Positions 8,299 to 62,418 of a stretch of 64,000 bases of DNA are shown here, piece after piece. Under the pieces are notes generated by a model. The model was given only the letters and a program-made list of their open reading frames with translations, was not told where the DNA came from and searched no databases. Position 1 is the first letter of the stretch. Every line of letters starts with the position of its first letter. Where the stretch lies: the NCBI GenBank assembly GCA_024683775.1, contig GCA_024683775.1_4106.1, one strand, 5' to 3'. The stretch is from a phage. The translations under genes were made by a program, and so were the position numbers.

Positions 8299-8709
8299 AT
8301 GAGTTTAGATTTACACAATGAACTAAAATATTATTTCGATTTGGATATATCACATTTGAACCAACACGTCAATTATATGACTAGTACTATGTGGTGGTCT
8401 GATGAGTTTGATGAACCAAAAATCCAACTTTGTGGTGATTTGTCTGTTTTGAGGTTGTATGCCCTTGATTCGGAAATGAATATCAAGATCACATACATCC
8501 CATACACAAACAAACTTATTGTAAACACCCTAAACCCAGTTACCGTATTGAAAATTTCTGATTTGGACACGATACAGTCAGATGAATCACTATTCCAACG
8601 TTCTTTGATTGATGATATGGGTGGTATTTTATATGAAGATATTGTACAATTGAAGAAGATGTATAGTGAATTGTTAGAAATTAAAAACACAGTAATTGTG
8701 GGGAGTTGA
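8299..8709 (+). CDS. acidic-FQxS motif paralog family protein
   Basis: Motif 'SDESLFQRSLIDD'. Confidence 0.65.
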   Translation: MSLDLHNELKYYFDLDISHLNQHVNYMTSTMWWSDEFDEPKIQLCGDLSVLRLYALDSEMNIKITYIPYTNKLIVNTLNPVTVLKISDLDTIQSDESLFQRSLIDDMGGILYEDIVQLKKMYSELLEIKNTVIVGS

Positions 8710-8710
8710 T

Positions 8711-9115
8711 ATGGTAAGTTTACTTGATATTGATAATACCAGTCTAGTACTGGTAAAAAAAGGTGTAATTCCCAATTCTACAAAAATTGATTATGCAGTT
8801 ATTGAAACAAATATTGGAAATATCTGGTATGACTCCGAAAGGGATATTGTGATTAGCTGCGTAGACAGTGACCGTGCTGAGTGTTGTAGGGTTGGTCATG
8901 ACGGGCAATTTATTTTCGAATTCCGTTACTGGAAAGATGCTAAATTCCATCATGAGCATGTTTCAATTACAGGTGTGTATTGCACCGAAGAATCGTTCTT
9001 CATGGATAGTACTGTTAATGATTTTGGTTCAGTTACATTTGAGTACTATAAAAAAGTATACAACGTATCCAGAGAAGTAATGCGAATCATCAGAAATGCT
9101 GAGGGTCAAGATTAA
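8711..9115 (+). CDS. acidic-FQxS motif paralog family protein
   Basis: Motif 'TEESFFMDSTVND'. I prefer the ATG at 8711 over the non-ATG start at 8696 in the ORF track. Confidence 0.6.
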   Translation: MVSLLDIDNTSLVLVKKGVIPNSTKIDYAVIETNIGNIWYDSERDIVISCVDSDRAECCRVGHDGQFIFEFRYWKDAKFHHEHVSITGVYCTEESFFMDSTVNDFGSVTFEYYKKVYNVSREVMRIIRNAEGQD

Positions 9116-9116
9116 C

Positions 9117-9491
9117 ATGACTACTATATATGACATTTTAGGTGACTTGAATAAAAATATAGATAATGATTTTGTTATTGTTCAAGATACTAGAAATTTA
9201 TTTCAACTACCAATAGGTTCACCAGATAGGTTAATTTTTAATAGATACGCAAAAACACTGACATACCTACACGATGGTATGGTTATATTGGTACTTGATA
9301 TTAAAGAAAATACAATACGATATGCATATGACTTCAAAGATTATTGGTCAAGAACCCATAGTATTGATATTGAGGAAGAGGAACTATTCCAATTGTCATT
9401 GATTGAGGAAAATGTAATAGGAATTACAGAAATTGATATTGTTAAAAAAGCATTAGACTATACAAATATAAAAATTAATGGTGAGCTATGA
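9117..9491 (+). CDS. acidic-FQxS motif paralog family protein
   Basis: Motif 'EEEELFQLSLIEE'. The ATG at 9117 avoids overlap with the upstream gene; 9096 is an alternative. Confidence 0.6.
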   Translation: MTTIYDILGDLNKNIDNDFVIVQDTRNLFQLPIGSPDRLIFNRYAKTLTYLHDGMVILVLDIKENTIRYAYDFKDYWSRTHSIDIEEEELFQLSLIEENVIGITEIDIVKKALDYTNIKINGEL

Positions 9492-9943
9492 TGGAAATTG
9501 ATGAAATAAAAAATCATTTTGAAATTGCATTGTCTTGTAAATTTGATGGCTCTTATGTTCCTGATCCAGAAGAGATAATTAGAATTTCCACATCGTTTTC
9601 GGAAGAGTACAATGTTCTTATTGAGAAAACATATGACAGTACGGAACTCGCATTTTACAATAAGAATTCACGAACAACAACATTTATATTATTATATAAC
9701 ACAACATCGGATTTAATAGAAATTATAACATGTAAAACAATCAAAGATGTACATTATGAGACTATATCAAATGTGAGTTATTGTTCAACTGAAGAAGGAT
9801 ACTTTCAGGAATCTCTTGTTAAAAATTTAACAGTTAGTTATTCTGATTTAAGCACTATAATCAATTGTGTTGAAAAGCTAAATGATTTCGTTCTATCTAT
9901 GTTTGATATCACAGAGCAAAACCCGAAGGTAATCAAATGCTAA
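9488..9943 (+). CDS. acidic-FQxS motif paralog family protein
   Basis: Motif 'TEEGYFQESLVKN'. ATGA overlap upstream. Confidence 0.65.
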   Translation: MMEIDEIKNHFEIALSCKFDGSYVPDPEEIIRISTSFSEEYNVLIEKTYDSTELAFYNKNSRTTTFILLYNTTSDLIEIITCKTIKDVHYETISNVSYCSTEEGYFQESLVKNLTVSYSDLSTIINCVEKLNDFVLSMFDITEQNPKVIKC

Positions 9944-10392
9944 ATCCAGGACAGTTTTTCCATTTACTTAGTATTACACCTATACCGGATTTAATCAGTG
10001 AAGCGAATCAATATCGTGATATAGGAATTGTATCTATGGAATACGATTCACCTGACTTTAAATGTTACGTAACATATGATTTGGTAGCCTATGAGTCAGA
10101 AACTGAGATAAAAAAACCATCATACATTTTTGTGTTCATATATAATGATTATAGTGGTGATCTACTCAATGATGTTCATATTGACACATTTGAAATATGT
10201 GATAATATTATAACAGATGATTCATCATGTACATTTGATTTATCAGAAAACAGTACTGAAGAGGCACTTTTTCAGTTGAGTACTGTTAGTGACACTGTAC
10301 TAACTCTTGATGACATTGAGAAATTTAAAGAACAGCTTGACGCAGTACGTGAGATGTTCTATAATCATTATCCAGAAATCGAGTTCAAATAA
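9937..10392 (+). CDS. acidic-FQxS motif paralog family protein
   Basis: Motif 'TEEALFQLSTVSD'. Confidence 0.65.
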   Translation: MLNPGQFFHLLSITPIPDLISEANQYRDIGIVSMEYDSPDFKCYVTYDLVAYESETEIKKPSYIFVFIYNDYSGDLLNDVHIDTFEICDNIITDDSSCTFDLSENSTEEALFQLSTVSDTVLTLDDIEKFKEQLDAVREMFYNHYPEIEFK

Positions 10393-11049: not shown

Positions 11050-11910
11050 ATGAAACCTATCAGAGTACTGTCACTTTTTAATGGAATGAGCGTTGGATAT
11101 ATGGCATTGGCAGATGCAGGTATTCCAGTTGAAAAATATTACTCATCTGAAATTGACAAGTACGCAATTGCTGAATCTTCCGAGAATTTTCCTGATATTA
11201 TCCAGTTAGGTGATGTGACTAAGTGGAAAGAATGGGATATTGAGTGGGATAAGATAGATTTACTCATGGGAGGATTCCCATGTCAAGCCTGGTCTGTTGC
11301 TGGTAAGCAAGGTGGCTTGAATGATATACGTGGACAGTTATTTTTGGTTATGGTTGATATTTTTGAGCACATCAAAAGTGTAAATCCAAACTTGCAATTT
11401 CTGTTCGAGAATGTTAAAATGAAGGAAGATTTCAAAGAATACATTAATAGTATTTTAGGAATCACACCAGTACTGATAAATTCCCAGCATTATACGCCTC
11501 ACTTCAGGCAGAGATACTACTGGTGCAGTACTGATAAGCTTTTTATACCACCTGCATTATCAAATGCCCCTAAACTTCAAGATATCATTGAAGATGGTTG
11601 GTATACTGACAGAACCGCTTCGTACTGTATAGATGCTAACTATTTTAAGGGTGGTGATTGTAACCAGTACTTTAATAAATCAAGACGACAGTTGGTGTTT
11701 CGTGACCCAACGATTAATCGTCAATATCTATTGGAGAATGGTAAAAGAAATATTGACTATAGACACTTAAGTGTAGTAGAATGTTGTAAATTACAGGGTA
11801 TTCCTGTAGATTTCTTTAAAGTGTCTAGTAAGACACAAGCATACAAAATGCTTGGGAATGGATGGACTATGCCAGTTATATCACACTTACTAAGAGAGAT
11901 ATTCTTTTGA
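11050..11910 (+). CDS. C5 cytosine-specific DNA methyltransferase (orphan; no nuclease partner seen)
   Basis: Motif I 'VLSLFNGMSVG', motif IV 'GGFPCQAWSVAG', motif VI 'FLFENVKMK', motif VIII-like 'QRYYW' and motif X 'GNGWTMPV'. Confidence 0.85.
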   Translation: MKPIRVLSLFNGMSVGYMALADAGIPVEKYYSSEIDKYAIAESSENFPDIIQLGDVTKWKEWDIEWDKIDLLMGGFPCQAWSVAGKQGGLNDIRGQLFLVMVDIFEHIKSVNPNLQFLFENVKMKEDFKEYINSILGITPVLINSQHYTPHFRQRYYWCSTDKLFIPPALSNAPKLQDIIEDGWYTDRTASYCIDANYFKGGDCNQYFNKSRRQLVFRDPTINRQYLLENGKRNIDYRHLSVVECCKLQGIPVDFFKVSSKTQAYKMLGNGWTMPVISHLLREIFF

Positions 11911-12434: not shown

Positions 12435-12950
12435 ATGACAGTTCCTTATGTTAAAATTATTAATAATATCCTTGATTCGTGGGAAGATGTTATTACTGGT
12501 AAAAAGAACCCAATGCCAGTACACGCACTAACCGGAAGACTACAATTCAGAACGTCAAACAAAACTGAAACTTTTAATAATCATGATGTTCACATTACTA
12601 TAAAATCACCTGTACGTATTGTAATTAAAAAAAATCAAGATGATGAATTGACATTATCTATTGGTAGTGATAAAATCATTTTGAGTAATTTATCCGAAGA
12701 AGAATTCTTTCAACGTAGTACTATCATCGATATGAAAGATTTCACATATGAATCATTGGTTGAACTCAATACACGTTTCAACGATATTCAGGAACGATTG
12801 CGACCAATCCTCGGTAAAGAAGAGGAAGCCTGGAATGAAAGTGTGAGAAAGATGCAAGAAATGTTGAAAGAAAATATTAACAATCTGGGTAAAGCTACAA
12901 TGGAATTTGGTAAATCTTTTAAACTGAACTTTTCAAAGGATCGTAAATGA
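12435..12950 (+). CDS. acidic-FQxS motif paralog family protein
   Basis: Motif 'SEEEFFQRSTIID'. The track start at 12408 lies inside the terminator hairpin, so I prefer the ATG at 12435. Confidence 0.6.
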   Translation: MTVPYVKIINNILDSWEDVITGKKNPMPVHALTGRLQFRTSNKTETFNNHDVHITIKSPVRIVIKKNQDDELTLSIGSDKIILSNLSEEEFFQRSTIIDMKDFTYESLVELNTRFNDIQERLRPILGKEEEAWNESVRKMQEMLKENINNLGKATMEFGKSFKLNFSKDRK

Positions 12951-13402
12951 AAATTGATAATTTGATTCATGTCTTAGGGACTTTACATAAAATATTATCT
13001 CATGTAGATGAGATAAAGAAACTGGGACTTAACATCTCAAATTCAATTGAAACTACATTTAAATATCAATCAATTACTGGTGATGGTTATTACATAATCG
13101 AATATACTTATGAAACCGATCCAGACTTCTATCCTCTTACGTTGAGAATTTATCCAACAAATCCGAGAGGAATTCACGACATATCATCAATTTCACTTGA
13201 TCCAGATGGTGAAACGAGTATTGAATACAATAATGATTCAAAACCAGAATTTTACATTGATGATATTAAAAAGTTGTTCAATGATGAATATGTTTTCCAA
13301 CAAAGTACTGTGCATGATGTTGGTAGTACTACTGGGCAATTTTGGAATACATGTTATTATCATATGATTGAAATTTGTAAATTACTAAAAGGTGTTGAAT
13401 AA
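12947..13402 (+). CDS. acidic-FQxS motif paralog family protein
   Basis: Motif 'NDEYVFQQSTVHD'. ATGA overlap upstream. Confidence 0.65.
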   Translation: MKIDNLIHVLGTLHKILSHVDEIKKLGLNISNSIETTFKYQSITGDGYYIIEYTYETDPDFYPLTLRIYPTNPRGIHDISSISLDPDGETSIEYNNDSKPEFYIDDIKKLFNDEYVFQQSTVHDVGSTTGQFWNTCYYHMIEICKLLKGVE

Positions 13403-14558: not shown

Positions 14559-14701
14559 TGGTGTATACTAATATTTTTACTGGTATTATGCGTAAGTTTG
14601 TTAATGGTATTGGATATGTATCCAATGACAACGGTAGTACATGGGTAAAAAATAATACGTCAGAATCTTTAGTGAAAAGTCTTCCGTATTATAAAGCTTG
14701 A
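14558..14701 (+). CDS. small hypothetical protein (47 aa; not in ORF track)
   Basis: TAATG overlap upstream. The TGA stop lies inside the next TTGACA. Confidence 0.35.
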   Translation: MVYTNIFTGIMRKFVNGIGYVSNDNGSTWVKNNTSESLVKSLPYYKA

Positions 14702-14726
14702 CACATGAAAATGGAGTATGTATAAT
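14698..14726 (+). promoter_or_regulatory. sigma70-type promoter
   Basis: TTGACA at 14698-14703, 17 bp spacer, TATAAT at 14721-14726. Confidence 0.6.
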
Positions 14727-20522: not shown

Positions 20523-20871
<349 letters not shown>

Positions 20872-21622: not shown

Positions 21623-21738
<116 letters not shown>

Positions 21739-21742
21739 AAAT

Positions 21743-21828
<86 letters not shown>

Positions 21829-21845
21829 CAATTAAAGGTTAAACC

Positions 21846-22006
<161 letters not shown>

Positions 22007-22010
<4 letters not shown>

Positions 22011-22167
22011 CACATGAAGAATGGATGAATGACATTAATTTTAGATATTCGGGTATCGGTAAATGGCTAAAGTATCATTGGGAATTCATTTCAGAGCCAC
22101 ATCTGTATGATAAACTTATCAACGATCCAGCATATGAAATGTACTTAATTGAACTACTGGTACGAAT

Positions 22168-22171
<4 letters not shown>
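22007..22171 (+). CDS. 54-aa 'MTHEEW' family protein, tandem copy 2
   Basis: ATGA overlap upstream. Nearly identical to copy 1 over the first 19 codons. Confidence 0.5.
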
Positions 22172-22763
<592 letters not shown>

Positions 22764-22767
<4 letters not shown>

Positions 22768-22792
22768 CTAAATAGTTCAGTACTGATATAAT
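22764..22792 (+). promoter_or_regulatory. sigma70-type promoter, copy B of the repeated promoter
   Basis: TTGACT at 22764-22769, 17 bp spacer, TATAAT at 22787-22792. Confidence 0.6.
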
Positions 22793-22798
22793 GAATTC

Positions 22799-23140
22799 CA
22801 CAATCAGACGTATATGGTGTAAGTTACGTCGATGTAATCCAGAACAAGATCTCTGGTACTCTAGGAAGTGGTGAATGTTAACCTAGACGGGTTTGATAAT
22901 TGGACGATAGGCAATTATTACTTGACTAGCAGGTTTAAACTAGAGGTGACAGTCCTTTACCAAACTGGAAAACCGGATGGACTTTTATTTAAAAGGGTAA
23001 GGCGTGGAAATATGTTTACAGTAGTTGCTTTTAGTAGCCTGTACGCCCCACGTAAAGGTAGCCGAAAGGCAAGTTAAAACGGGTGGTTATAAAGCTGAAT
23101 TAACAGCGGCGTTTAAAAGCGTCACCATCCATTTTTTTTA
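22799..23140 (+). ncRNA. candidate structured non-coding RNA (~340 nt), promoter-driven and ending at a T8 run
   Basis: No convincing ORF. It has its own promoter. GNRA hairpin GCC-GAAA-GGC. Nested stem CCAC...GTGG. Terminal stem GGGTGGT...ACCATCC followed by TTTTTTTT. Confidence 0.45.
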
Positions 23141-23155
23141 ATTAAAGTTGGTGAT

Positions 23156-23533
<378 letters not shown>

Positions 23534-23544
23534 GATTAAGTACT

Positions 23545-24109
<565 letters not shown>

Positions 24110-24123
24110 ATCAGTACTTTATT

Positions 24124-24258
<135 letters not shown>

Positions 24259-24262
24259 AATC

Positions 24263-24352
24263 GGTCCCGTTGCCTAGCGTCCGAAGGCAGCCGACTCATA
24301 ATCGGTCACAGTTAATGACACACCACTGGTTAGAATCCAGTCGGGACCACCA
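24263..24352 (+). tRNA. tRNA with CAT anticodon (Met/Ile2 type) carrying an ~18 nt variable region and a TTA T-loop
   Basis: Acceptor GGTCCCG/CGGGACC plus A plus CCA. D-arm GCCT...AGGC. Anticodon arm GCCGA-CTCATAA-TCGGT. T-arm ACTGG-TTAGAAT-CCAGT. Confidence 0.6.
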
Positions 24353-24356
24353 ATTA

Positions 24357-24429
24357 GACTCTGTAGTTCAGTTGGTAGAACGCTTCACTCATAATGAAGA
24401 AGTCGCTGGTTCAATCCCAGTACTGACCA
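24357..24429 (+). tRNA. tRNA-like (CAT anticodon) with a non-complementary acceptor stem; possible pseudogene
   Basis: Canonical D-arm GTTC-AGTTGGTA-GAAC, anticodon arm CTTCA-CTCATAA-TGAAG and T-arm GCTGG-TTCAATC-CCAGT. The 5' GACTCTG cannot pair with the 3' ACTGACC. Confidence 0.35.
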
Positions 24430-24438
24430 CAAAAAAAA

Positions 24439-26136
<1,698 letters not shown>

Positions 26137-26183
26137 AATATTCTCCTGAATTTTCTAAAAGTTATAATAATATTTAGTTACAA

Positions 26184-26190
26184 TATTTAT
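26184..26190 (-). promoter_or_regulatory. possible T4-type late promoter core (ATAAATA on the minus strand)
   Basis: The minus strand reads TCATAAATATTG about 48 nt upstream of the GTG start. Confidence 0.25.
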
Positions 26191-26206
26191 GATATAGATT
26201 AAAAAG

Positions 26207-26236
26207 TTGAAATGTGTTCAAAAAATGTGGTATAAT
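26207..26236 (+). promoter_or_regulatory. sigma70-type promoter with an extended -10
   Basis: TTGAAA at 26207-26212 and TGgTATAAT at 26228-26236. Confidence 0.5.
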
Positions 26237-26262
26237 ACCTCTGTTGTTCACGGAAAGATTAA

Positions 26263-26484
<222 letters not shown>

Positions 26485-26493
26485 TCAAAATTC

Positions 26494-26575
<82 letters not shown>

Positions 26576-26584
26576 TAAAACAAA

Positions 26585-26668
26585 TGGTAGTTAGCATATC
26601 GGCCTTATGCAACGGACTGTTAATCCGTGTCAGAAATGACAAGACTGGTTCGACTCCAGTACTACCAG
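26585..26668 (+). tRNA. tRNA-Asn (GTT) carrying an extra variable-arm hairpin
   Basis: Acceptor TGGTAGT/ACTACCA. D-arm GCAT...ATGC. Anticodon arm ACGGA-CTGTTAA-TCCGT. 15-nt variable region with a GTCA-GAAA-TGAC hairpin. T-arm ACTGG-TTCGACT-CCAGT. Confidence 0.7.
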
Positions 26669-26733
26669 CAAAACAATCATGAACCTCGGAACAATAAATA
26701 ATATCATACAGGATATTATGAGGTCTAAGGTTC

Positions 26734-27276
26734 ATGGGACGAAAACAATCAGAAGAAACACGTAAAAAAATAGCTGAATCATTAAAGGCTAAAAGTTCTA
26801 AATTACCAGAGAATGAAATAATTCAAAAATATTTAAATGGTATGCCAATTTACGGTTTAGCCAAAGAATATAAGTGTAATAGATCAAGAATAAATGATAT
26901 CGTTGAATCACATGGTGTTAAACGACCAAAATCAACCAATGAAATGCGATTTTGTGAAATACACAATAAGAATTATGAATTAAATTCACAAGGTAAATGG
27001 AAATGTTTAAAATGTGACAGTCAACGTGTTTCTGATAGACGTAGAAAATTAAAAATACTAGCCGTTGAATACAAAGGCGGTTGTTGTGAAAAGTGTGGAT
27101 ATGATAAATGCATTGCCGCATTAGAATTCCATCATGTTGATCCTTCACAGAAAGATTATTCAATTAGTCAAGAAGGTGCAACTCGTTCTTTTGAAAAAAT
27201 TAAAATAGAACTGGATAAATGTATTATGGTTTGTGCAAATTGTCATCGTGAGATTCATGATGATGAACGACAATAA
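26734..27276 (+). CDS. HNH endonuclease with a NUMOD3-like N-terminal DNA-binding motif
   Basis: 'GRKQSEETRKKIAESLK', 'CEKCGYDKCIAALEFHHVDPSQKD' and 'CANCHREIH'. Confidence 0.8.
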   Translation: MGRKQSEETRKKIAESLKAKSSKLPENEIIQKYLNGMPIYGLAKEYKCNRSRINDIVESHGVKRPKSTNEMRFCEIHNKNYELNSQGKWKCLKCDSQRVSDRRRKLKILAVEYKGGCCEKCGYDKCIAALEFHHVDPSQKDYSISQEGATRSFEKIKIELDKCIMVCANCHREIHDDERQ

Positions 27277-27279
27277 TTT

Positions 27280-27549
<270 letters not shown>

Positions 27550-27557
27550 GAATTTAA

Positions 27558-27959
27558 ATGAAAAAGAATGACTTGATCAAAATGCTTCAAGAGATTGACG
27601 GCAATCCAGAGATTGTTATTTGGAATGGATATGTCGATGATTATATGAACATCGAAAAAGGCTTGACTAAAATCACTCTAGTCAAAGAAACTGAACAGTT
27701 CCTTCTGGAAGCATTAGTGCACGAATGGTGCAAACGTAACAATACATTCGACATTCCAGAAGATCAACGAACTAAGATTGCAGAACAAGCTAAAAAACTT
27801 CATAAGAAACGTGAATACGATTTCCAGAACCCACATGTTACTGAAGACGAATTCAATCACTGGTACGGTAAAAAGAAATTGACAAAATATGTCATTTCAC
27901 CTAAACTACGTGGTAAGACTTCACTTGGTGTCTTCAACGCCGCTGACTTAAACTACTAG
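27558..27959 (+). CDS. protein of the 'MxKxDLIKxLQ' N-terminal family
   Basis: 'MKKNDLIKMLQEIDGNPEIVIW'. Confidence 0.55.
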   Translation: MKKNDLIKMLQEIDGNPEIVIWNGYVDDYMNIEKGLTKITLVKETEQFLLEALVHEWCKRNNTFDIPEDQRTKIAEQAKKLHKKREYDFQNPHVTEDEFNHWYGKKKLTKYVISPKLRGKTSLGVFNAADLNY

Positions 27960-27968
27960 CGGGTATTA

Positions 27969-28501
<533 letters not shown>

Positions 28502-28520
28502 AAATCTTAGTAAGAAAATA

Positions 28521-28602
<82 letters not shown>

Positions 28603-28681
28603 GAAGAAACTGCTAAACAGCTTGAAGTACTTTGTAGTGCTGCACCTATGCCGACACTTGGCTTAATCAAGTTGATGCGTA

Positions 28682-28723
<42 letters not shown>

Positions 28724-28774
28724 GCCTCCCCTCAATGCGAAAGAGTATAGAGACTTGTTGGTTATCTTACTTCT

Positions 28775-28853
<79 letters not shown>

Positions 28854-28870
28854 CAAAATAAAGGTACACT

Positions 28871-36298: not shown

Positions 36299-36757
36299 AT
36301 GTTTAAACACTTTCTAGTAATCACTGCTGTTGTATTCAGTACTTCCTGCTTCGTTGCACCAGTACATGCGGAAGACCAGCGTCAAACAATCAAGACGATT
36401 GGAACAGGGAAAGCCCAACCAAAACGTACTGCTGAAGAATACATGCCTGAGATGCGTGAACGTTACCGCCAGCAATACCGTGAAAAACATGCTAATGATA
36501 AGCCTATCAAAAAGCATAAATGGAATGTAGTCAAATCGCCATCGTTTTGTGCTGGGTATGCTAAGGTTAAGGATGAACAGCACAACAAGCAGTACTATAA
36601 AGATATGTACACATTCTATGATTCGAGGATCTCGGATGATGACATGATGGCTGCTAAGGTTGATAAAGAAGAATTTCTTCAGGGTTATGACATGACCGAT
36701 GATGACAAGATCATGGAATGTGTTGAAGTATATGAAAAATACAGAGGTTTTGAATGA
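36299..36757 (+). CDS. secreted protein (signal peptide)
   Basis: 'MFKHFLVITAVVFSTSCFVAPVHA|EDQ' looks like a signal peptide. Confidence 0.55.
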   Translation: MFKHFLVITAVVFSTSCFVAPVHAEDQRQTIKTIGTGKAQPKRTAEEYMPEMRERYRQQYREKHANDKPIKKHKWNVVKSPSFCAGYAKVKDEQHNKQYYKDMYTFYDSRISDDDMMAAKVDKEEFLQGYDMTDDDKIMECVEVYEKYRGFE

Positions 36758-37197
36758 CACTTTTGCTGATTCTAGGTTTATTAGTGTCATATTTCATTTT
36801 TCTTAACATCTTCTCTGATGCATCACATTTTGCATATGCTTCAGCTATTGCAAAACACGAAGGGATAAAGAAGTATATTCCTGCATTGTTATTCTCATAT
36901 ATGTACCATCCAAGGTACTTTACACTAGGTGTGTTTGACAAGTATGTATACGACGAAAAAGCACTCAATGAAATTGAATACTTTGTAAGAACTCATGCTA
37001 ATAACAATCCAAAATCATTAATTAACTTTACTGATAATCGTAAACGTGTTAGTATTAGAAGTGACTTGTATCCTACCAGTCACTTTCATCTAGGCGATTG
37101 TAGTGTGTACAGAGTTAGATACGAAAACTTACTGTTACCACCATCACATATAAGATACATAGAAAAATACTTGTTGAAATGTGTTGACTCCAAATAG
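36754..37197 (+). CDS. membrane-anchored protein
   Basis: N-terminal 'LLLILGLLVSYFIFLNIF'. ATGA overlap upstream. Confidence 0.55.
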   Translation: MTLLLILGLLVSYFIFLNIFSDASHFAYASAIAKHEGIKKYIPALLFSYMYHPRYFTLGVFDKYVYDEKALNEIEYFVRTHANNNPKSLINFTDNRKRVSIRSDLYPTSHFHLGDCSVYRVRYENLLLPPSHIRYIEKYLLKCVDSK

Positions 37198-37250
37198 TAA
37201 ATGGCAGTATAATAGCTTCGTACCGCAATAACTGACAAGAGGATTTAACG

Positions 37251-37709
37251 ATGGACGTATTAGCTACTCAATTCAAACGCAACGCAGAAGAACGTGAAGG
37301 TTACCTAAGTATCAGTGAAGTGGTTGAAGATGGATTCAAGCAGTACATTTTCAACAGTGCAATTAAACTGAAGCCAACAAAAGATTCACCGGATCGCAGC
37401 TTCACAAAGTGGATTGCATTCTGGGAAGAGTCACCAATTGCAATCGAAATGACTGTCATTACTACAGTACTGGAAACTGGTTACATCAAAGCAATTGTAG
37501 TTGATAAGAAAGTTCGCACTCTTGATGAAATCGGGACATACCCAGCACGTAACTCTAAAGTATTTGGGTGTTTAGTTGATGGTAAGTTTATGATTGAAAA
37601 AGATGCTAAGAACTATGTAATTGATAAACTACAAACCAGTGCTACTAAACAGGAAGTCGTAGACCAGAACGCAGTGGATGCTATTAAAAAGGCATGGGGA
37701 CTGAAATAA
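37251..37709 (+). CDS. hypothetical protein
   Basis: 152 aa ORF with a GAGGA RBS. Confidence 0.55.
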   Translation: MDVLATQFKRNAEEREGYLSISEVVEDGFKQYIFNSAIKLKPTKDSPDRSFTKWIAFWEESPIAIEMTVITTVLETGYIKAIVVDKKVRTLDEIGTYPARNSKVFGCLVDGKFMIEKDAKNYVIDKLQTSATKQEVVDQNAVDAIKKAWGLK

Positions 37710-38131
37710 TGTTCACACTTAGCAATGCAAAGTATCTATTTCTTATTGCTATTATTGGTTGGGTTATGGCTCCAGTGCTTAATGCACTGGGGTTTCCAGA
37801 CGGACATAAACTTGTAAATGTTTCAGGTGTAATCCAGGGCATTTCATGGTATTCATTGATTATATTTTCTATATGTATTCATACATTTGCACGTGATTAC
37901 CGCCGTCTGCTTTTTGTTAAAGTATTCGGTACTAAGAGATATAGTTTTGTGTTTACATTTATTTTAATACCATGTATTATCTATGCTTTTGTATTTGATT
38001 ACTATACTTATCTGTGGGTGTGTGGTTCTATGTTTGTTATGTTGGAATATACAAGAACTGTTCAAAACTCATATGCTGATGAGTATTATGATCTTGAAGT
38101 TAAACGAAAATTAACGGAGCTAAACAAATGA
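37709..38131 (+). CDS. multi-pass membrane protein
   Basis: About four hydrophobic helices. TAATG overlap upstream. Confidence 0.55.
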   Translation: MFTLSNAKYLFLIAIIGWVMAPVLNALGFPDGHKLVNVSGVIQGISWYSLIIFSICIHTFARDYRRLLFVKVFGTKRYSFVFTFILIPCIIYAFVFDYYTYLWVCGSMFVMLEYTRTVQNSYADEYYDLEVKRKLTELNK

Positions 38132-38553
38132 GGGGATACAATAAGATTTGTATTTTTGTATTTTTAGTTTGTGCAATCAATACATTTGGATATTACTGTA
38201 CTGAAAACAACATTTCATATGGTTTAAATCCTTTGTGGTTTACAATTGCCAATGTAGCACAAATTGGTATTGCTGTTATGTCTGCACTTATGTTCTGTCC
38301 AATTGTCACTATGGATACTGAACATGAAAGGCTTGGATTTATCCGTGATACTGGAGACGAACCTTACAGTAGATTGATTGTGTTGTATCCATTTATTGTT
38401 ATTTTAGGTACTAACATCCAACTTGGGTCTTTATCTAATAGTGTTACTTCAGCAGCCATTACAGTCTTTGCATTCACATTTTTTATGGTACACAAATCAG
38501 TACTCAAATGGCACATCACCAAAATGGCAGAGAAAGGTACAGAAAACAGTTGA
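38128..38553 (+). CDS. multi-pass membrane protein
   Basis: About four hydrophobic helices. The stop TGA lies inside the next TTGACG. Confidence 0.55.
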   Translation: MRGYNKICIFVFLVCAINTFGYYCTENNISYGLNPLWFTIANVAQIGIAVMSALMFCPIVTMDTEHERLGFIRDTGDEPYSRLIVLYPFIVILGTNIQLGSLSNSVTSAAITVFAFTFFMVHKSVLKWHITKMAEKGTENS

Positions 38554-38578
38554 CGTGAGTTATTGAGTCATATATAAT
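38550..38578 (+). promoter_or_regulatory. sigma70-type promoter
   Basis: TTGACG at 38550-38555, 17 bp spacer, TATAAT at 38573-38578. Confidence 0.55.
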
Positions 38579-38612
38579 TATTACATCAAAACGGGGAAAT
38601 GGTAAGGAACTT

Positions 38613-38864
38613 ATGAACATCGATAAGGTCAAAGAACTTAGTGAAGCACTAATTAAGAACGAAGAAGCTTGTGAAGAACTTCGCAGTACTATCAAAGTTG
38701 AGTACGCACGTCTTCAAGCTATGCTTCAGGAATCCGAATGGGTTGTAACTAAATCAATCGAAGCTATCTATAAGGATATCGAATCCCTTTTCAATAAGAA
38801 AAGCAAGTTTGAATCTGATTCATATAACAAGCGTAAAGAATTGAATTCAGTACTCGGTATCTAA
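38613..38864 (+). CDS. hypothetical coiled-coil protein
   Basis: 83 aa ORF. Confidence 0.5.
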   Translation: MNIDKVKELSEALIKNEEACEELRSTIKVEYARLQAMLQESEWVVTKSIEAIYKDIESLFNKKSKFESDSYNKRKELNSVLGI

Positions 38865-38870
38865 AAGTAT

Positions 38871-38899
38871 TTGACTTAACCAATAACATGGAGTACAAT
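38871..38899 (+). promoter_or_regulatory. sigma70-type promoter
   Basis: TTGACT at 38871-38876, 17 bp spacer, TACAAT at 38894-38899. Confidence 0.55.
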
Positions 38900-38938
38900 G
38901 TGCTCCTACTTTAATCAAAATCCTAAAAGGAAAACATT

Positions 38939-39199
38939 ATGAAATCTATCCTCGTTGCTGTAAACCTGGTTGCTTCCCCATCTTTCAACTTCAAACAAGT
39001 TGTTGCTGATAATCTGAAGAACATTTGCCCTAACGCTGAATTGACTTTCTGTGTGTTTGATTCAGAAAAAGTAACAACTGTTGATCTAAACTATCTTTTG
39101 AACGAAGTACAAAGTATTTCTGGTGAAAGTAATTTGGAAGTACTGAACTCCGTTGCTGATGACTATGATGATACACTTGTAATTTCGGAGAAATTCTAA
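38939..39199 (+). CDS. hypothetical protein
   Basis: 86 aa ORF. Confidence 0.5.
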   Translation: MKSILVAVNLVASPSFNFKQVVADNLKNICPNAELTFCVFDSEKVTTVDLNYLLNEVQSISGESNLEVLNSVADDYDDTLVISEKF

Positions 39200-39204
39200 A
39201 TCCA

Positions 39205-39624
39205 ATGCTTAGATTTATACATTACTTAATCAGTAAGGTTTTTGGGTATCAAACTGTGGAGGACAAGGCTAATCTAGCACACAAAATCTTCACAGCTTTG
39301 TGTTCTGGTGATTATCCTGTATTGAATAAGTACTGTAAATCTAAAGCATGTATTGACATAATGGCACTTCGTATATATGAGTGCCAGTTCAATAGATACA
39401 ATTTTTACCAGTACAGATATGATAAAGATGATTTTGATAGCATTGTAATGCTAAAGAATTTATGTAATAATAAAAAGAATATTCATATATCTGAATTTGT
39501 TGCATTGTATTTTTATTTAAAAAGTTCATTGTATATGAATTCAATGCAACGATTTGATACTAGAATTAATGTATTCAACGATAAAGAATTTTATATCTAT
39601 GATAAATTTTTAGATAAGGTTTAA
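39205..39624 (+). CDS. hypothetical protein
   Basis: 139 aa ORF. Confidence 0.5.
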   Translation: MLRFIHYLISKVFGYQTVEDKANLAHKIFTALCSGDYPVLNKYCKSKACIDIMALRIYECQFNRYNFYQYRYDKDDFDSIVMLKNLCNNKKNIHISEFVALYFYLKSSLYMNSMQRFDTRINVFNDKEFYIYDKFLDKV

Positions 39625-39625
39625 T

Positions 39626-40123
39626 ATGACGACTGTTTATATTGATAAACGCTTGGGAGTATTACTTACTGATTCAAAAGTGACATCAACTGAGCAACGT
39701 TCATTTTTGAACCTATTCCCGTTGAAGCCAAAACTTAGTTATGGTGTAGTTTCACAAAAAACATTGTATGTACACGACCGACTGTTTAGTGCTTGCGGTG
39801 AAGTTAGTGAAATTAACAAAGTACTGAGATACTTGATTTCACAAGAGACTGTGATACCAGACCGCAAGGCGAGTTGTCACTGTGTTCTTGTGTCAAAAGA
39901 TTACATCATTCACTTAATCGTTAATAAGGGTAAGTTTACCAAGAAGATTGATTATCTCCATAATGATTATACATTCTTTATGGGTAGTGGTGGTGAATAC
40001 ATGCTTGATGCAGCAGTACATGAAGAGTATAATACTCTTCTTGATAAGGTATTTGATACCTTCATGGATGTTCATAACCATGATATCTATACCGATGATA
40101 ATATTAATGTATACCGTTTTTGA
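39626..40123 (+). CDS. HslV/proteasome beta-subunit-like Ntn-hydrolase (tentative)
   Basis: N-terminal 'MTTVYIDKRLGVLLTDSKVT' compares with HslV 'TTIVSVRRNG.V.I.GDGQ'. A 'FFMGSGGEYMLDAA' GSGG motif compares with HslV 'AIGSGGPYAQAAA'. Confidence 0.45.
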   Translation: MTTVYIDKRLGVLLTDSKVTSTEQRSFLNLFPLKPKLSYGVVSQKTLYVHDRLFSACGEVSEINKVLRYLISQETVIPDRKASCHCVLVSKDYIIHLIVNKGKFTKKIDYLHNDYTFFMGSGGEYMLDAAVHEEYNTLLDKVFDTFMDVHNHDIYTDDNINVYRF

Positions 40124-40145
40124 TTTCATTCATTAGGAGAAGTAA

Positions 40146-41111
40146 GTGAAAAAGCTTGATTTAAATGCAATTTCTGAAGAAGTACTGGATGAGTGTTTTG
40201 CTAGTGAAGAAGTCAACGTATTAGAGGCTCTTGATTCCGTCGAAGAAGAAGAACATGACGGTCACAAGTTTGAGAAACCAAAAACAGGTATCAGCTTAAC
40301 TCGCCCTAAAGGGATAACGAATGAAATGCTCATCCAAGCAGTGCGTGATGGTATTGACGTTGAAAAGAACATTGACCTTTTGGTTCGCTACAACTATCCA
40401 ATGGTAGTAAGTGTTGCACGTAAGTGTACATGTTTTATCCCATTTGAAGATAAGATTTCTTATGGTGTTGAAGGTTTAATGCGAGCAATTCATACGTTCG
40501 ACACTACCAAAAATGTTAAGTTCATTACATATGCAACAACAACTGTGTACATGACAATCTATAACGAAAGTGCAGATGCTAATTATCTAGTGCATTTCCC
40601 ACGTTATATGAGTGTTAATAACATTTATGTGAAACGTTGTGTAGAAGAGTATCAAAGGAAACATGGTAAATACCCAACTCCTGAGATGGTGTCAAAAGAG
40701 ACTGGTATTGAGATTCAACACGTTAAGAATTGTCTAACTTACAGTAACACTTATGTAGCATTGAATATGAAAATGAGTAATGATTCAGAAAGTACATTAT
40801 CTGACATTGTTACTTCAGTTGAACCTGATTACAACTTAGGCGTAGAAACTGTCAGTACCCCACTGGTACAAAGTATTGCAGAAATGATGAGTAACCTATC
40901 TGCCAAAGACCGTGAATTGATTGAACGTGTACATGGTATTGGTTCTTATTCTGAACCCGAAACGCTACGAGAAATCATTGAGAGTGGTTTTGAAGATGAG
41001 AAGGGTAAGGTCATGACTGCTCGTTCTTCATTGCACCGTAAGTACTCTGAAGCAATGGAACGACTGCGTAAGATGGTTAAGACAAAAGGTTATGAGTTCG
41101 AAGATTTTTAA
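40146..41111 (+). CDS. sigma-70 family RNA polymerase sigma factor
   Basis: GTG start after a GGAGAAG RBS. Region 2-like 'LVRYNYPMVVSVARK...GVEGLMRAIHTFD...KFITYATTTVYMTIYNE'. Region 4-like 'LSAKDRELIERVHGI...ETLREI...ARSSLHRKYSEAMERLRK'. Confidence 0.75.
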   Translation: MKKLDLNAISEEVLDECFASEEVNVLEALDSVEEEEHDGHKFEKPKTGISLTRPKGITNEMLIQAVRDGIDVEKNIDLLVRYNYPMVVSVARKCTCFIPFEDKISYGVEGLMRAIHTFDTTKNVKFITYATTTVYMTIYNESADANYLVHFPRYMSVNNIYVKRCVEEYQRKHGKYPTPEMVSKETGIEIQHVKNCLTYSNTYVALNMKMSNDSESTLSDIVTSVEPDYNLGVETVSTPLVQSIAEMMSNLSAKDRELIERVHGIGSYSEPETLREIIESGFEDEKGKVMTARSSLHRKYSEAMERLRKMVKTKGYEFEDF

Positions 41112-41119
41112 GATTAAAG

Positions 41120-41145
41120 GGTTGACTTCGGTCAGCCTTTTTTTA
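41120..41145 (+). terminator. terminator hairpin of the repeated TTGACTTCGGTCA cassette family (copy 1)
   Basis: GGTTGAC-TTCG-GTCAGCC hairpin followed by TTTTTTT. Confidence 0.7.
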
Positions 41146-41180
41146 TGGGACAAATTTATTAATGGTGATACAATGATCTA

Positions 41181-41660
41181 TGTACAATCACAATGACAGT
41201 ACTGGTACTGACAATCTTCCCCTACTTCACTTGAAAATGTAAAGGATAGATGAGCTTTTCATTGTAGCGAACAGCAAAAGAAACCCGTTAGATGTGGGCA
41301 TAGTTTGAACCCCTCACGGCAATGCGGCTGTATAAAGAACCACGTTAGGATAGCTGGTGGTTCCTCGATAGACATATAAGGATAACACCTTACGAATTAT
41401 CTAAGGGAGAGTTATCGAATTTTGTACAGGAAAGTTGCGTCCAAAATTTGAGTACTCACATTAAGTATTTGATTGCATAGATACTTAATGAAGATACACT
41501 ATGTTTAAAAGTGTAGACCGTCATATGAAACTGAAGTAGAGAGAAACAGGATGACCCGCTTTCGCACTCGTTATGAGTAATCTTCAATGCAATAGCTCTG
41601 ATACCATCAGCGTCAAATTTCCCTCCGTGCGGGGGGAAGAAAAATCCCTTCCTCAAATCC
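41181..41660 (+). ncRNA. candidate large structured non-coding RNA (~480 nt)
   Basis: Extended -10 TGaTACAAT at 41166-41174. No plausible ORF. Hairpins GAACCAC...GTGGTTC, CATTAAGTAT...ATACTTAATG and ACACT...AGTGT. Terminal hairpin TTCCCTCC-GTGC-GGGGGGAA. Confidence 0.4.
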
Positions 41661-41678
41661 CGTCAATATTAAAAGTCC

Positions 41679-41707
41679 TTGACAGTTATGATTCATTCGC
41701 GTAGAAT
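41679..41707 (+). promoter_or_regulatory. sigma70-type promoter
   Basis: TTGACA at 41679-41684, 17 bp spacer, TAGAAT at 41702-41707. Confidence 0.55.
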
Positions 41708-41771
41708 ACGTAGTATTAGAAGCGAACAGACATCTCGAAGAGATGGATGATTAACCATTGAGGAATATCTA

Positions 41772-41981
41772 ATGAATTCAGTAATCTTTTTAATTATTGC
41801 TCTTTCACCACAATCTGGTGTACAAATCACCCCAATGAATTCAATGAATCAATGCATTGCAGTACGTGACAGTACGTATGAACAAGTAAACAGCGTTTCA
41901 CTTAGAACAGTTGGTGAAGAATTAATGTGGTGTTACAATAGTAATACTAAAGAAAAACTAATTGTTGGACAAACAGAATGA
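41772..41981 (+). CDS. small secreted or membrane-anchored protein
   Basis: Hydrophobic N-terminus 'SVIFLIIALSPQSG'. Confidence 0.5.
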   Translation: MNSVIFLIIALSPQSGVQITPMNSMNQCIAVRDSTYEQVNSVSLRTVGEELMWCYNSNTKEKLIVGQTE

Positions 41982-42208
41982 GTTATGGTGTTCGTTTTGA
42001 GATTCGTTCTATTGTTATCAATGACGAGAAACAAGCATCGTTGGATGGCGATATACGAGAACTATATCTATCATGTATCCGTGCGAAATCTGAAGCAGAT
42101 GCCTTAGTACAAATGTATAGTTTTAACTTTTCAAATGGATTCTATTTGGTACGAGTTATTGAAGTGAAAAAAGTACTTATTGGTTGTAGCATAGAAGGAT
42201 TAATGTAA
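41978..42208 (+). CDS. hypothetical protein
   Basis: 76 aa ORF. ATGA overlap upstream. Confidence 0.5.
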   Translation: MSYGVRFEIRSIVINDEKQASLDGDIRELYLSCIRAKSEADALVQMYSFNFSNGFYLVRVIEVKKVLIGCSIEGLM

Positions 42209-42209
42209 A

Positions 42210-43004
42210 ATGAGCACTATAGATGAATTGATTCGCCGGAATTCAAAATACTACGACCCATCAGAAATTGTCGGCAACATTACTAAATCTGAGTTCGGCC
42301 CAAATACTCGAAAACTCATTCATGTAATGTCACGTGATGGCTTTAAATGTGATTGTTGTGGTGAATCCAATGTGGTATTCACTTTACATAAGCACAGTAC
42401 TAAAGACCGTTATAAATTCAGACCTTATGTACTTAAAGGGAAACGCCTTGTACGCATGACGTTAGACCATAATGTACTGGACTGTCTTCAGGGCGGTAAT
42501 GATAAAGAGAACATGACCGCATTGTGTGAGGATTGTAACGCATTACGCCAGCATAAGTTTGCTGAGTACAGTGAGTTTAAGCACTGGTATCATAACGCTG
42601 ATCGTTCTATCGAGCCTGACGTTAACTACTGCTTCATTGAGTATATTAAGAATGCTAAAGATACGTACATTCTTAAATCAATGTCACCTATTACAGTGTT
42701 CCCTGAGAATCTATTCAGTACTATGCAGCGTGATTTTAAACGTGGTATCATTAATGCATTCAAACATTTAGACAAAGGTATCAAGCACTTTGAGGTGCAA
42801 TGCTTAAATGAAGGAATGAATCGTTTAGTACAAATTTACATGAAATCATTTATAGGTGTTGACACCGCACGTCTACCAGTATATAATTACTTTATTGAAA
42901 GCGAAGAAGGTGAATCACTTCGTGATTATGGTGAAAGATTTAATAATAAAGTTTTCACTGCAATCGCAAACGAGATTCATTACTATAAACCATATGTAAT
43001 TTAA
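42210..43004 (+). CDS. HNH endonuclease
   Basis: 'CDCCGES...TLDHNVLDCLQGGNDKENMTALCEDCNALR' matches the C-x2-C ... D-H ... N ... C-x2-C pattern. Confidence 0.7.
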   Translation: MSTIDELIRRNSKYYDPSEIVGNITKSEFGPNTRKLIHVMSRDGFKCDCCGESNVVFTLHKHSTKDRYKFRPYVLKGKRLVRMTLDHNVLDCLQGGNDKENMTALCEDCNALRQHKFAEYSEFKHWYHNADRSIEPDVNYCFIEYIKNAKDTYILKSMSPITVFPENLFSTMQRDFKRGIINAFKHLDKGIKHFEVQCLNEGMNRLVQIYMKSFIGVDTARLPVYNYFIESEEGESLRDYGERFNNKVFTAIANEIHYYKPYVI

Positions 43005-43018
43005 TTAGAGGATATATC

Positions 43019-43201
43019 ATGCAAATCATCATTCTTATCGTAGGTATCATTCTTGGTGTATATGGTCACTCCTGGATGAACGAGAAGTTCCCTAATACCC
43101 GTCCTGAGTATTGCAGTACTAATGTATTCCAGAATGGTGAGAAACCAAAGGATAGTATTGGTAAGAAACTGGACAAAGTACTTGACGTAATCAACGAATA
43201 A
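43019..43201 (+). CDS. small membrane-anchored protein
   Basis: 'MQIIILIVGIILGVYGHSW'. Confidence 0.5.
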   Translation: MQIIILIVGIILGVYGHSWMNEKFPNTRPEYCSTNVFQNGEKPKDSIGKKLDKVLDVINE

Positions 43202-43210
43202 GGGTAAAGT

Positions 43211-43411
43211 ATGTTTAAATCAAATACAAATGTTGGTAAGAAGGTTCAATTACTTGAGGATGTATCCACCTTGAGTGGAATTTTCCCAAGAGGTCACATC
43301 ATGACTATTATTGCCGAAACATCCCGTGGGTGGGATTTGGAAGATGCTGATGGTAATCGCATCCTTGAGGCTGGATTCTATGGTCATCGTGAATATAAAA
43401 TCATTGATTAA
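43211..43411 (+). CDS. hypothetical protein
   Basis: 66 aa ORF. Confidence 0.5.
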   Translation: MFKSNTNVGKKVQLLEDVSTLSGIFPRGHIMTIIAETSRGWDLEDADGNRILEAGFYGHREYKIID

Positions 43412-43420
43412 GGATGCAAC

Positions 43421-43504
43421 ATGACTTTAGAGATTGTCTTTGGTATTGTTAGCTTAGTCGTCTGTGTGGGTTGGTTTGGGTATCTGATGATTTTTGGTGA
43501 TTAA
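43421..43504 (+). CDS. 27-aa hydrophobic peptide (not in ORF track)
   Basis: MTLEIVFGIVSLVVCVGWFGYLMIFGD, after an AAGGA RBS. Confidence 0.3.
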   Translation: MTLEIVFGIVSLVVCVGWFGYLMIFGD

Positions 43505-58832: not shown

Positions 58833-58860
58833 TTGACAAACTCATTCAGTACTGTATAAT
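58833..58860 (+). promoter_or_regulatory. sigma70-type promoter followed by a leader hairpin
   Basis: TTGACA at 58833-58838 and TATAAT at 58855-58860. Leader hairpin GGGGATGA-ACTTC-TCATCCCC at 58870-58890. Confidence 0.6.
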
Positions 58861-61647: not shown

Positions 61648-62418
61648 ATGACCAGAGAAGCCCGTAGCATTCAAATCCAGAAAAACTTCAACTCCATGAT
61701 GGTTGCTCTTGAGTGTTTGCTCGATGATAGCAGTACTGTAAAAAGTATGGTTGTCAGCGGTGCACCTGGTGTTGGTAAGACTTACACCCTGTCACAACGC
61801 CTCCAGAAAGCTCATGACGCAGCAGAATGGAACGTAGCTACTATCAGTGGTAAGATGACTACTCTTGCTCTGTATGAAGTTCTGTACAAGAATCGTCACA
61901 GCACCAACGTATTAGTACTGGATGATATGGACAGCATCTTTGATTCAGAAGACGGTATGAACCTGCTCAAAGCAGTACTGGACAGCGGTAAACGTACTGT
62001 GTCTTACATGACTAGCTCTAAGTACTTAACTACCAACGGTATCCCTAACAGCTTTGATTTTAACGGTCGTATCGTATTCATTACTAACAAAGATTTGGCA
62101 CTGAATGCTAAAGCTAAAACCAAAATGTCTGCTCACTATGCTGCTCTTATGTCTCGCTCTGTGTATGTTGACTTACAGATCCAGACTAAAAGCGATATCA
62201 TGATTCACATTGAAAACGTAATGAACAAGACCAACATCCTGTCAACTAAAGGTGTTAATAGTAATGGTAGCAAAGCAATCCTGAATTGGATGCTGAAACA
62301 TGAAGATGCACTTCGTGCTCCTTCACTGCGTATGCCTCTGTTGATTTCAGCAGTATACAACAACAACCCGTATGATTGGGAAGAGCAGTGCGAAAACTTG
62401 TTCCTTGAGAAAATTTAA
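61648..62418 (+). CDS. P-loop (AAA-like) ATPase
   Basis: Walker A 'SGAPGVGKTYTL' and Walker B 'VLVLDDMD'. Confidence 0.7.
   Translation: MTREARSIQIQKNFNSMMVALECLLDDSSTVKSMVVSGAPGVGKTYTLSQRLQKAHDAAEWNVATISGKMTTLALYEVLYKNRHSTNVLVLDDMDSIFDSEDGMNLLKAVLDSGKRTVSYMTSSKYLTTNGIPNSFDFNGRIVFITNKDLALNAKAKTKMSAHYAALMSRSVYVDLQIQTKSDIMIHIENVMNKTNILSTKGVNSNGSKAILNWMLKHEDALRAPSLRMPLLISAVYNNNPYDWEEQCENLFLEKI

Follow-up and report, generated by a model that had tools for sequence, protein, structure and literature searches.

The 64,000-nucleotide stretch of phage DNA analysed here (contig GCA_024683775.1_4106.1 of assembly GCA_024683775.1, one strand; hereafter the window), which nucleotide identity places in the Rak2-like group of jumbo coliphages, carries at position 39626 an open reading frame (ORF) for a 165-residue protein that is predicted to adopt the proteasome/HslV-type N-terminal nucleophile (Ntn) hydrolase fold with an intact catalytic constellation. 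With a probability of roughly 0.7, we regard this protein as a threonine peptidase of the proteasome family that is made without a propeptide, is produced early and acts in the cytoplasm without an unfoldase encoded by the phage, while the position of its gene directly ahead of a gene for a sigma-70-family factor reflects synteny. Judged from its sequence, the peptidase is probably active. A previous sequence-only reading of this DNA had described the first gene as HslV/proteasome-like. The Ntn fold is borne out by model and profile, whereas the HslV label is not, given the marginal sequence similarity, the missing helix H2 and the failure to find an HslU gene in the clade.

The fold is apparent from an AlphaFold model computed with 18 family sequences, distant subclades included, which reached a predicted local distance difference test (pLDDT) score of 88.3 and a predicted template modelling (pTM) score of 0.79. 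It displays the four-layer alpha-beta-beta-alpha Ntn sandwich, and the structure prediction that the sequence-only reading had recommended for this ORF has thereby turned out in favour of the proposed fold. Comparison of the model with BFVD yielded 17 phage proteins at E values of at most 1e-3, some of which are named HslV or proteasome beta, and in fold comparison HslV and 20S beta subunits both outscored connectase. Two architectural features deserve attention. A single helix (residues 60-72) is followed by coil (residues 73-83) at the position of H2, modelled with a pLDDT of about 93, and residues 18-41 form an elongated extra beta-hairpin (pLDDT 74-76).

No start codon lies between the ATG at 39626 and the in-frame stop preceding it, so that an N-terminal propeptide is impossible. 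The HslV-type placement of Thr right after Met, which had been pointed out before, is no product of chance but common to the entire family, as all 29 aligned members start with M-T-T (one of them carries 5 extra N-terminal residues, its start probably having been miscalled). Identity within this alignment goes down to 20%, and M1, T2, T3, D16, G58, G120, G122 and D153 are nevertheless invariant. T15, T20, K45 and S121 are conserved in at least 90% of the members, position 156 is T or S, and the proteins are 165-185 residues long. The segment that had been likened to the GSGG region of HslV corresponds to residues 117-129 (FMGSGGEYMLDAA) and indeed contains a G120-S121-G122 motif with both glycines invariant.

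When the family profile was run against PDB sequences, the top matches were all proteasome beta5 or beta6 subunits, each of them individually weak (best E 0.045). In these alignments TT..TDSRvT of the family falls onto T..ADSRAT of beta5, covering Thr1, Asp17, Arg19 and Thr21, and GSGs..D.Yt..iNvY falls onto GSGS..DAYSGG.VNLY, covering Ser129, Asp166 and Ser169. The beta6 stretches equate K45 with Lys33 and G58 approximately with Gly47, a placement derived solely from the coordinates at which the stretch matched. A single-sequence phmmer search of the peptidase against the PDB returned only a chance match (OspA, E 0.58), and a profile of 11 family sequences found no match there. In PHROGs the protein has a family of its own, phrog_24804 (function unassigned), and matches phrog_1040, 'peptidase HslV family', more weakly (E 2.8e-6); 19 of the 29 relatives match phrog_1040 as well, with E values as low as 7.8e-18, and two of the 29 reach the Pfam Proteasome family (E 1.3e-3). 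Against Salmonella HslV the family hidden Markov model (HMM) scored 5.4 bits. From these features we infer removal of Met1 and catalytic activity, as well as what is said below on oligomeric state and substrates.

Proteasome homologues of phages are not a new kind of system. They were already recorded as a class in 2021 in the catalogue of Fuchs, Alva and Lupas, which presents 22 new proteasome homologues (PMC8665760). According to that work PPH and RPC are the only proteasome homologues devoid of H2, PPH is phage-borne and radiates, as does HslV, from the BPH cluster, and neither a co-occurring AAA+ partner nor an informative gene context was found for the new homologues (PMC8665760). Because H2 is missing, the peptidase studied here is architecturally closest to PPH among the described groups, and on its predicted structure, held against the published description of PPH, it is a PPH-like proteasome homologue and not a true HslV. 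With PPH, which is also known from prophage genes, it shares the occurrence in tailed phages of Proteobacteria, the compact group-I architecture, the absence of a propeptide, of the C-terminal S12/H5 and of H2, and the lack of an associated AAA+ unfoldase. On the other hand, PPH proteins comprise about 140 residues and have no insertions, whereas the window protein has 165 (165-185 in the family) including the hairpin formed by residues 18-41, and its best PHROGs match is a separate family, with phrog_1040 in second place.

HslV (ClpQ) resembles the peptidase in its MTT start, which exposes Thr1 without autoprocessing, in the GSGG motif and in size. It differs by possessing both H1 and H2, by lacking the extra hairpin and by its motif following S2, which reads AGDGQAT in HslV and TDSRVT here, the latter being nearer to ADSRAT of 20S beta5. 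Furthermore, the peptidase has no significant match to the HslV models of NCBIfam and Pfam, and an hslU gene neither adjoins it nor, as far as tested, occurs in the clade. The 20S beta subunits (MEROPS T1, PF00227) have in common with it the Ntn sandwich and Thr1, Asp17, Lys33, Gly47, Ser129, Asp166 and Ser169, and it is their beta5 and beta6 members that the family profile matches best in the PDB; unlike them, the phage protein has no propeptide, H2, H5 or alpha-type partner and stays below the Pfam gathering threshold. Connectase, an archaeal, monomeric ligase, likewise has a propeptide-less N-terminal nucleophile and a reduced helical layer, but it lacks H1 in addition to H2 and has a lid of two helices inserted between S3 and S4, whereas H1 is kept here.

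The lineage is small and restricted to jumbo phages of the Rak2-like group and to some uncultured phages. Over the 2.5 kb around the peptidase gene and its sigma neighbour, the window shares 97-98% identity with the jumbo coliphages WPEC5, WPEC3, Ecwhy_1 and fEgEco12, and about 80% with three phages of the genus Asteriusvirus, 121Q, PBECO4 and phAPEC6. An exhaustive HMMER search among 1.84 billion sequences gave 17 cluster representatives at E values of at most 1e-3, two profile searches of a collection of 5.8 billion added five further members, and a related-locus search with a narrow alignment found 121Q and RaK2 only. The gene is present in 52 phage records with Escherichia (33 records), Klebsiella, Salmonella and Erwinia as hosts; the other family members are located on metagenomic phage-like contigs. 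Annotation is uneven, since the product is called 'ATP-dependent protease subunit HslV' in the fEgEco12 record, 'ATP-dependent protease' in Turkey3 and 'hypothetical protein' in most others. PADLOC returned no defence-system match for the peptidase. In phage CMSTMSU (MH494197.1) the peptidase and sigma genes are both split into several small coding sequences. The split is not evidence of dispensability, because the record is marked UNVERIFIED_ORG and the sigma gene is fragmented too; sequencing errors rather than gene decay are the likely cause.

The peptidase gene is followed, after a spacer of 22 nucleotides, by a GTG-initiated gene for 321 amino acids, just as had been stated in the sequence-only reading and in agreement with the coordinates 40146-41111 (Table 1). 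The ribosome-binding site AGGAG lies 6 nucleotides before this GTG. No terminator hairpin is present in the spacer, the fold of 40100-40150 being no better than that of shuffled sequence (z +0.98), while the sigma gene is followed by an intrinsic terminator with a free energy of -13.9 kcal/mol (z -3.77; 0 of 200 shuffled sequences folded as well). A scan for consensus terminators reported none in 36500-43500 and overlooked this hairpin. The absence of a hairpin in the spacer together with the strong terminator behind the sigma gene indicates that the two genes probably share a transcript in the window. The run of four genes that ends with the sigma gene is preceded by a candidate promoter of sigma70 type, which may drive it. 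In most genomes the gene 5' of the peptidase gene reaches up to or into the peptidase start; as it shows no homology between clades, it is not a conserved partner.

The order peptidase gene, then sigma gene, is found in the window, 121Q, phAPEC6 and RaK2 (48% identity), with two small ORFs in between in Hallingskeid (42%), one small ORF in a metagenomic contig (L007, 42%) and an annotated terminator in Munch (29%). The genomes are syntenic around the locus, and a shared order is therefore expected from descent alone. In two distant subclades no sigma gene is present within the 5-8 kb read. Downstream of the peptidase gene, subclade P0027/P0030 has a gene for a DUF7325 protein (L002, 8548-8892; L008, 6003-6347) and subclade P0024/P0031 a gene for a 242-residue protein without family match (L006, 6521-7249; L009, 1698-2426); being conserved within each subclade, these genes could encode lineage-specific partners. 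The adjacency of peptidase and sigma genes thus looks like inherited synteny in the early operon of one clade rather than evidence of coupling. The functional link between protease and sigma factor that had been suggested earlier finds no support in an adjacency that is limited to one syntenic clade, lost in the two distant subclades and interrupted by an annotated terminator in Munch.

The sigma factor itself is well defined in its central part. Its Pfam matches, Sigma70_r2 at residues 79-141 (E 2.6e-9) and Sigma70_r3 at 162-224 (E 8.6e-12), are both above cut-offs, and SigB, SigA, RpoS and RpoD are matched in the PDB with E values of 1e-17 to 1e-14. The protein matches phrog_351, has an acidic N-terminus and scores 95.5 bits with NCBIfam RpoD_Cterm, far below the equivalog cut-off of 354, while the RpoS model aligns with residues 79-319. 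Clear regions 2 and 4 had been proposed previously. Region 2 is confirmed by the Pfam match, but region 4 is divergent and has no Pfam match at E values of up to 1; alignments with RpoS, SigB and RpoD do extend to the C-terminus, and the helix of region 4.2 aligns (ARSSLHRKYSEAMERLRK with TRERIRQIEAKALRKLR) after an insertion of about eight residues.

In a hand-checked alignment of the window protein with five orthologous phage proteins and a hand-entered sequence of E. coli sigma70, the positions of E585, R586, R588 and Q589 are occupied in the phage family by S, S/T, H and R, respectively. Y430 is kept, and W433/W434 are replaced in all six phage sigmas (TT in the window; SS, AS, VS and TA elsewhere). 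Like the RpoD-like sigma factors of group 2 jumbo phages (for example CBB_513, RaK2 ORF244, phAPEC6 gp066c) the protein has regions 2 and 3 and a putative region 4 in canonical order and an early location, and it differs from cellular RpoD, RpoS and SigB by scores far below equivalog level, by the changes at W433/W434 and at the -35 contacts and by the insertion in region 4. For CBB and GAP32 a class of promoters with the -35 element TGAAACG and a normal -10 element has been described upstream of DNA-synthesis genes (PMC5259590). The altered -35-contact residues fit a different promoter class, and the earlier suggestion that the phage sigma factor probably serves a class other than the sigma70 type, one not visible in the window, agrees with them as well as with the published motif. 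In the window, TGAAACG occurs 9 times against 9.3 expected, without enrichment, and any tie of this particular sigma factor to the motif is putative.

No gene for an AAA+ unfoldase adjoins the peptidase gene. A tblastn search with Salmonella HslU hit 4 Escherichia phage records, compared with 33 that contain the peptidase, which leaves at least 29 of the 33 without an HslU/ClpX match. Two of the four HslU-positive Escherichia records were among the matches listed, one being a fragment of 2.5 kb and the other a phage of 240 kb, and neither is Rak2-like. On the basis of these counts the clade appears to be without its own unfoldase. HslU- or ClpX-like genes were detected by tblastn in Erwinia phiKZ-like phages, PA5oct, Lak phages and others. 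A search for a conserved partner gene found none: the 256-residue ORF with a P-loop at 61648 is not large enough for an unfoldase and lies too far away, and the ATPases of AAA type encoded close to two of the distant homologues fall into different PHROGs and occupy different positions. As to the virion, the homologue gp067c of phAPEC6 (75% identity) is absent from the virion proteome of 62 proteins, and this phage possesses its own prohead protease, gp227c, a prohead core scaffold and protease of T4 type. A morphogenetic role of the peptidase is therefore unlikely.

Taken together, we propose that the peptidase gene would be transcribed early by host RNA polymerase with sigma70, in one unit with the gene for the phage sigma factor. 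Host methionine aminopeptidase would remove Met1, as suggested by the MTT start common with E. coli HslV, and thereby render Thr the nucleophile. The Thr/Asp/Lys triad, the Gly of the oxyanion hole and the supporting Ser, Asp and Thr residues would constitute a working peptidase, which may act in the cytoplasm of the infected cell rather than in the virion and would do so without an unfoldase from the phage. Its most likely substrates during takeover would be host proteins, either unfolded or specific ones, or peptides. The neighbouring sigma factor, divergent and RpoD-like, would redirect host core RNA polymerase to promoters with a different -35 element, both genes being together as members of the conserved early operon of the clade.

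Several observations weigh against this proposal. The window peptidase has no match in Pfam at E values of up to 1, PF00227 included, nor in NCBIfam, and hhalign of the family against one HslV sequence, that of E. coli, yielded a probability of 9.5%, in the GSGG region only. A first AlphaFold model from 11 close relatives was poor (pLDDT 54), and the good one derives from a shallow alignment of 18 sequences. Taking the model at face value, loss of H2 and the hairpin 18-41 could alter or abolish ring assembly. The apparent absence of HslU from the clade is deduced from tblastn counts, and the claim of synteny argues from a lack of evidence while the adjacency persists down to the 29% identity of Munch. 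Finally, the searched literature contained neither an enzyme assay nor an experimental study of any phage proteasome homologue.

In one alternative, the peptidase would form HslV-like rings that hijack HslU (ClpY) of the host and take the place of host HslV or compete with it, whereby ATP-dependent degradation would be re-targeted or the host HslUV titrated during infection. The propeptide-less MTT start, as in E. coli HslV, and the clade's lack of an unfoldase are in line with it, and the known hosts are enterobacteria that possess hslVU. It is unlikely, as the model lacks H2, which in 20S proteasomes and HslUV lies on the helical face contacting the neighbouring ring or cap, and as similarity to HslV is marginal. 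Moreover, the catalogue cited above found no AAA+ co-occurrence for the phage homologues and suggests that some of them act without a cap (PMC8665760). If rings are not formed at all, the protein might be a monomeric, connectase-like sequence-specific ligase or transpeptidase, or an enzyme processing a single site. The reduced helical layers and the extra hairpin close to the active site would suit such a function, the position of the hairpin being in loose analogy to the S3/S4 insertion from which connectase derives its specificity (PMC8665760). So would the caution of the same authors that ring assembly seems out of reach for several homologues (PMC8665760). It is extremely doubtful all the same, for HslV and 20S beta outscore connectase, H1 is kept, connectase is restricted to methanogenic archaea (PMC8665760), and no candidate substrate motif was found. 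Phages commonly encode capsid-maturation proteases, and a ClpP-like protein is part of the virion proteome of the related phage CBB (PMC5259590), but a prohead (head-maturation) protease or another virion component is largely refuted by the location of the gene, which lies within the early region with its sigma70 promoters and at a great distance from structural genes, and was rejected in view of the phAPEC6 proteome and gp227c.

The remaining alternatives give the neighbouring sigma gene a meaning. A peptidase coupled to it could degrade host sigma factors or regulators, or could bring about maturation or turnover of the phage sigma factor, and thus take part in the switch from early to middle transcription. 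Host HslUV degrades sigma32, the gene order is kept down to Munch, and co-transcription is probable in the window. Coupling is nevertheless improbable: synteny over long stretches explains the shared order, ORFs intervene in Hallingskeid and L007 and a terminator in Munch, the two distant subclades have other downstream neighbours, and neither sequence points to the other. More pointedly, the peptidase might be a takeover weapon that, alone or via host HslU, destroys a host sigma factor or a regulator associated with RNA polymerase and so hands the core polymerase over to the co-transcribed phage sigma factor. We consider this decidedly improbable; were it true, a protease of the proteasome family would for the first time have a defined role in the transcription switch of a virus.

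The interpretation favoured here, an early cytoplasmic peptidase with a syntenic neighbour, has practical consequences. It corrects the annotation 'hypothetical protein' in most of the 52 records and tempers the over-specific HslV label in a few. HslV-like genes have also been noted in other jumbo phages (PMC7823757; bioRxiv 10.1101/2023.02.24.529968). The main value of the locus lies in a tractable E. coli-phage model for the function of phage proteasome homologues: cultivable phages, early expression, an intact active site and a stripped-down architecture make for an entry point. The identity of the substrate would show why large lytic phages keep an enzyme of the proteasome type, and also whether minimal subunits form rings or use host HslU.

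The assignment of the locus to the early phase follows from its surroundings. The window contains 11 perfect TTGACA-N16-18-TATAAT sites against 0.19 expected, and all 11 are on the plus strand, which confirms the earlier impression of sigma70-like promoters; by sequence, they mark the window as an early region that would be read by host sigma70. Many sigma70 promoters, short ORFs and seven tRNA genes match the pattern described for the related phage CBB in its early region of host takeover, where the orthologous sigma gene resides too (PMC5259590). The features are compiled in Table 1.

Table 1. Features of the peptidase-sigma locus and of its surroundings in the window
Feature	Position	Strand	Description	Basis or remark
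Second candidate promoter	38550-38578		TTGACG-17-TATAAT	Consensus scan only
Candidate early promoter, sigma70 type	38871-38899	+	TTGACT-17-TACAAT	Consensus scan only; ahead of four-gene run 38939-41111
Upstream ORF	38939-39199	+	86 aa; phrog_26969	Function unassigned
Upstream ORF	39205-39624	+	139 aa; phrog_37211	Function unassigned; stop 1 nt before peptidase ATG
Peptidase ORF	39626-40123	+	165 aa; start MTTVYIDKR; proteasome/HslV superfamily	ORF list
Catalytic candidates of the peptidase	Residues T2, D16, K45, G58, S121, D153, T156		T2 is Thr1 after Met removal	
Spacer	40124-40145	+	22 nt, with ribosome-binding site AGGAG	Sequence
Sigma-70-family gene	40146-41111	+	GTG start; 321 aa	
Intrinsic terminator	41116-41148	+	11-bp stem (AAAGGGUUGAC/GUCAGCCUUU), UUCG loop, U-run	Folding
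HNH endonuclease	42210-43004		phrog_35175	Just downstream of sigma locus
Perfect sigma70 promoters (examples)	589-617, 14698-14726, 20823-20850, 42859-42887, 58833-58860	+		Consensus match
FQxS ORFs (examples)	8299-8709, 9096-9491, 9488-9943, 9937-10392, 12947-13402, 22402-22767, 23156-23533	+		
C-5 cytosine DNA methylase	11050-11910			
Seven tRNA genes	21649-28854		Including a tRNA-Ser called with anticodon ACT and three tRNA-Met(CAT)	
P-loop, AAA/STAND-like protein	61648-62418		256 aa; phrog_1250	Function unassigned

Directly behind the sigma terminator about 620 bp (41150-41770) are poor in ORFs, similar to a gap in fEgEco12; a promoter resembling the sigma70 type lies within this segment at 41679-41707, and Rfam gave no match for the segment at gathering score. 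The 'expanded family' of the sequence-only reading consists of 16 plus-strand ORFs of 119-193 amino acids with an FQxS motif, mostly 30-45 residues from the C-terminus. The resemblance of FQxS to protease sites of the Q|S type, for which that reading itself had drawn no link in the sequence, found nothing in its support. Rfam matches only one of the three tRNA-Met genes (24358-24430), and this partially, and two of the three are unusually long (79 and 90 nucleotides). Several of the 11 perfect promoters share the spacer end CAGTACTG or GTAGTAC just 5' of the -10 element.

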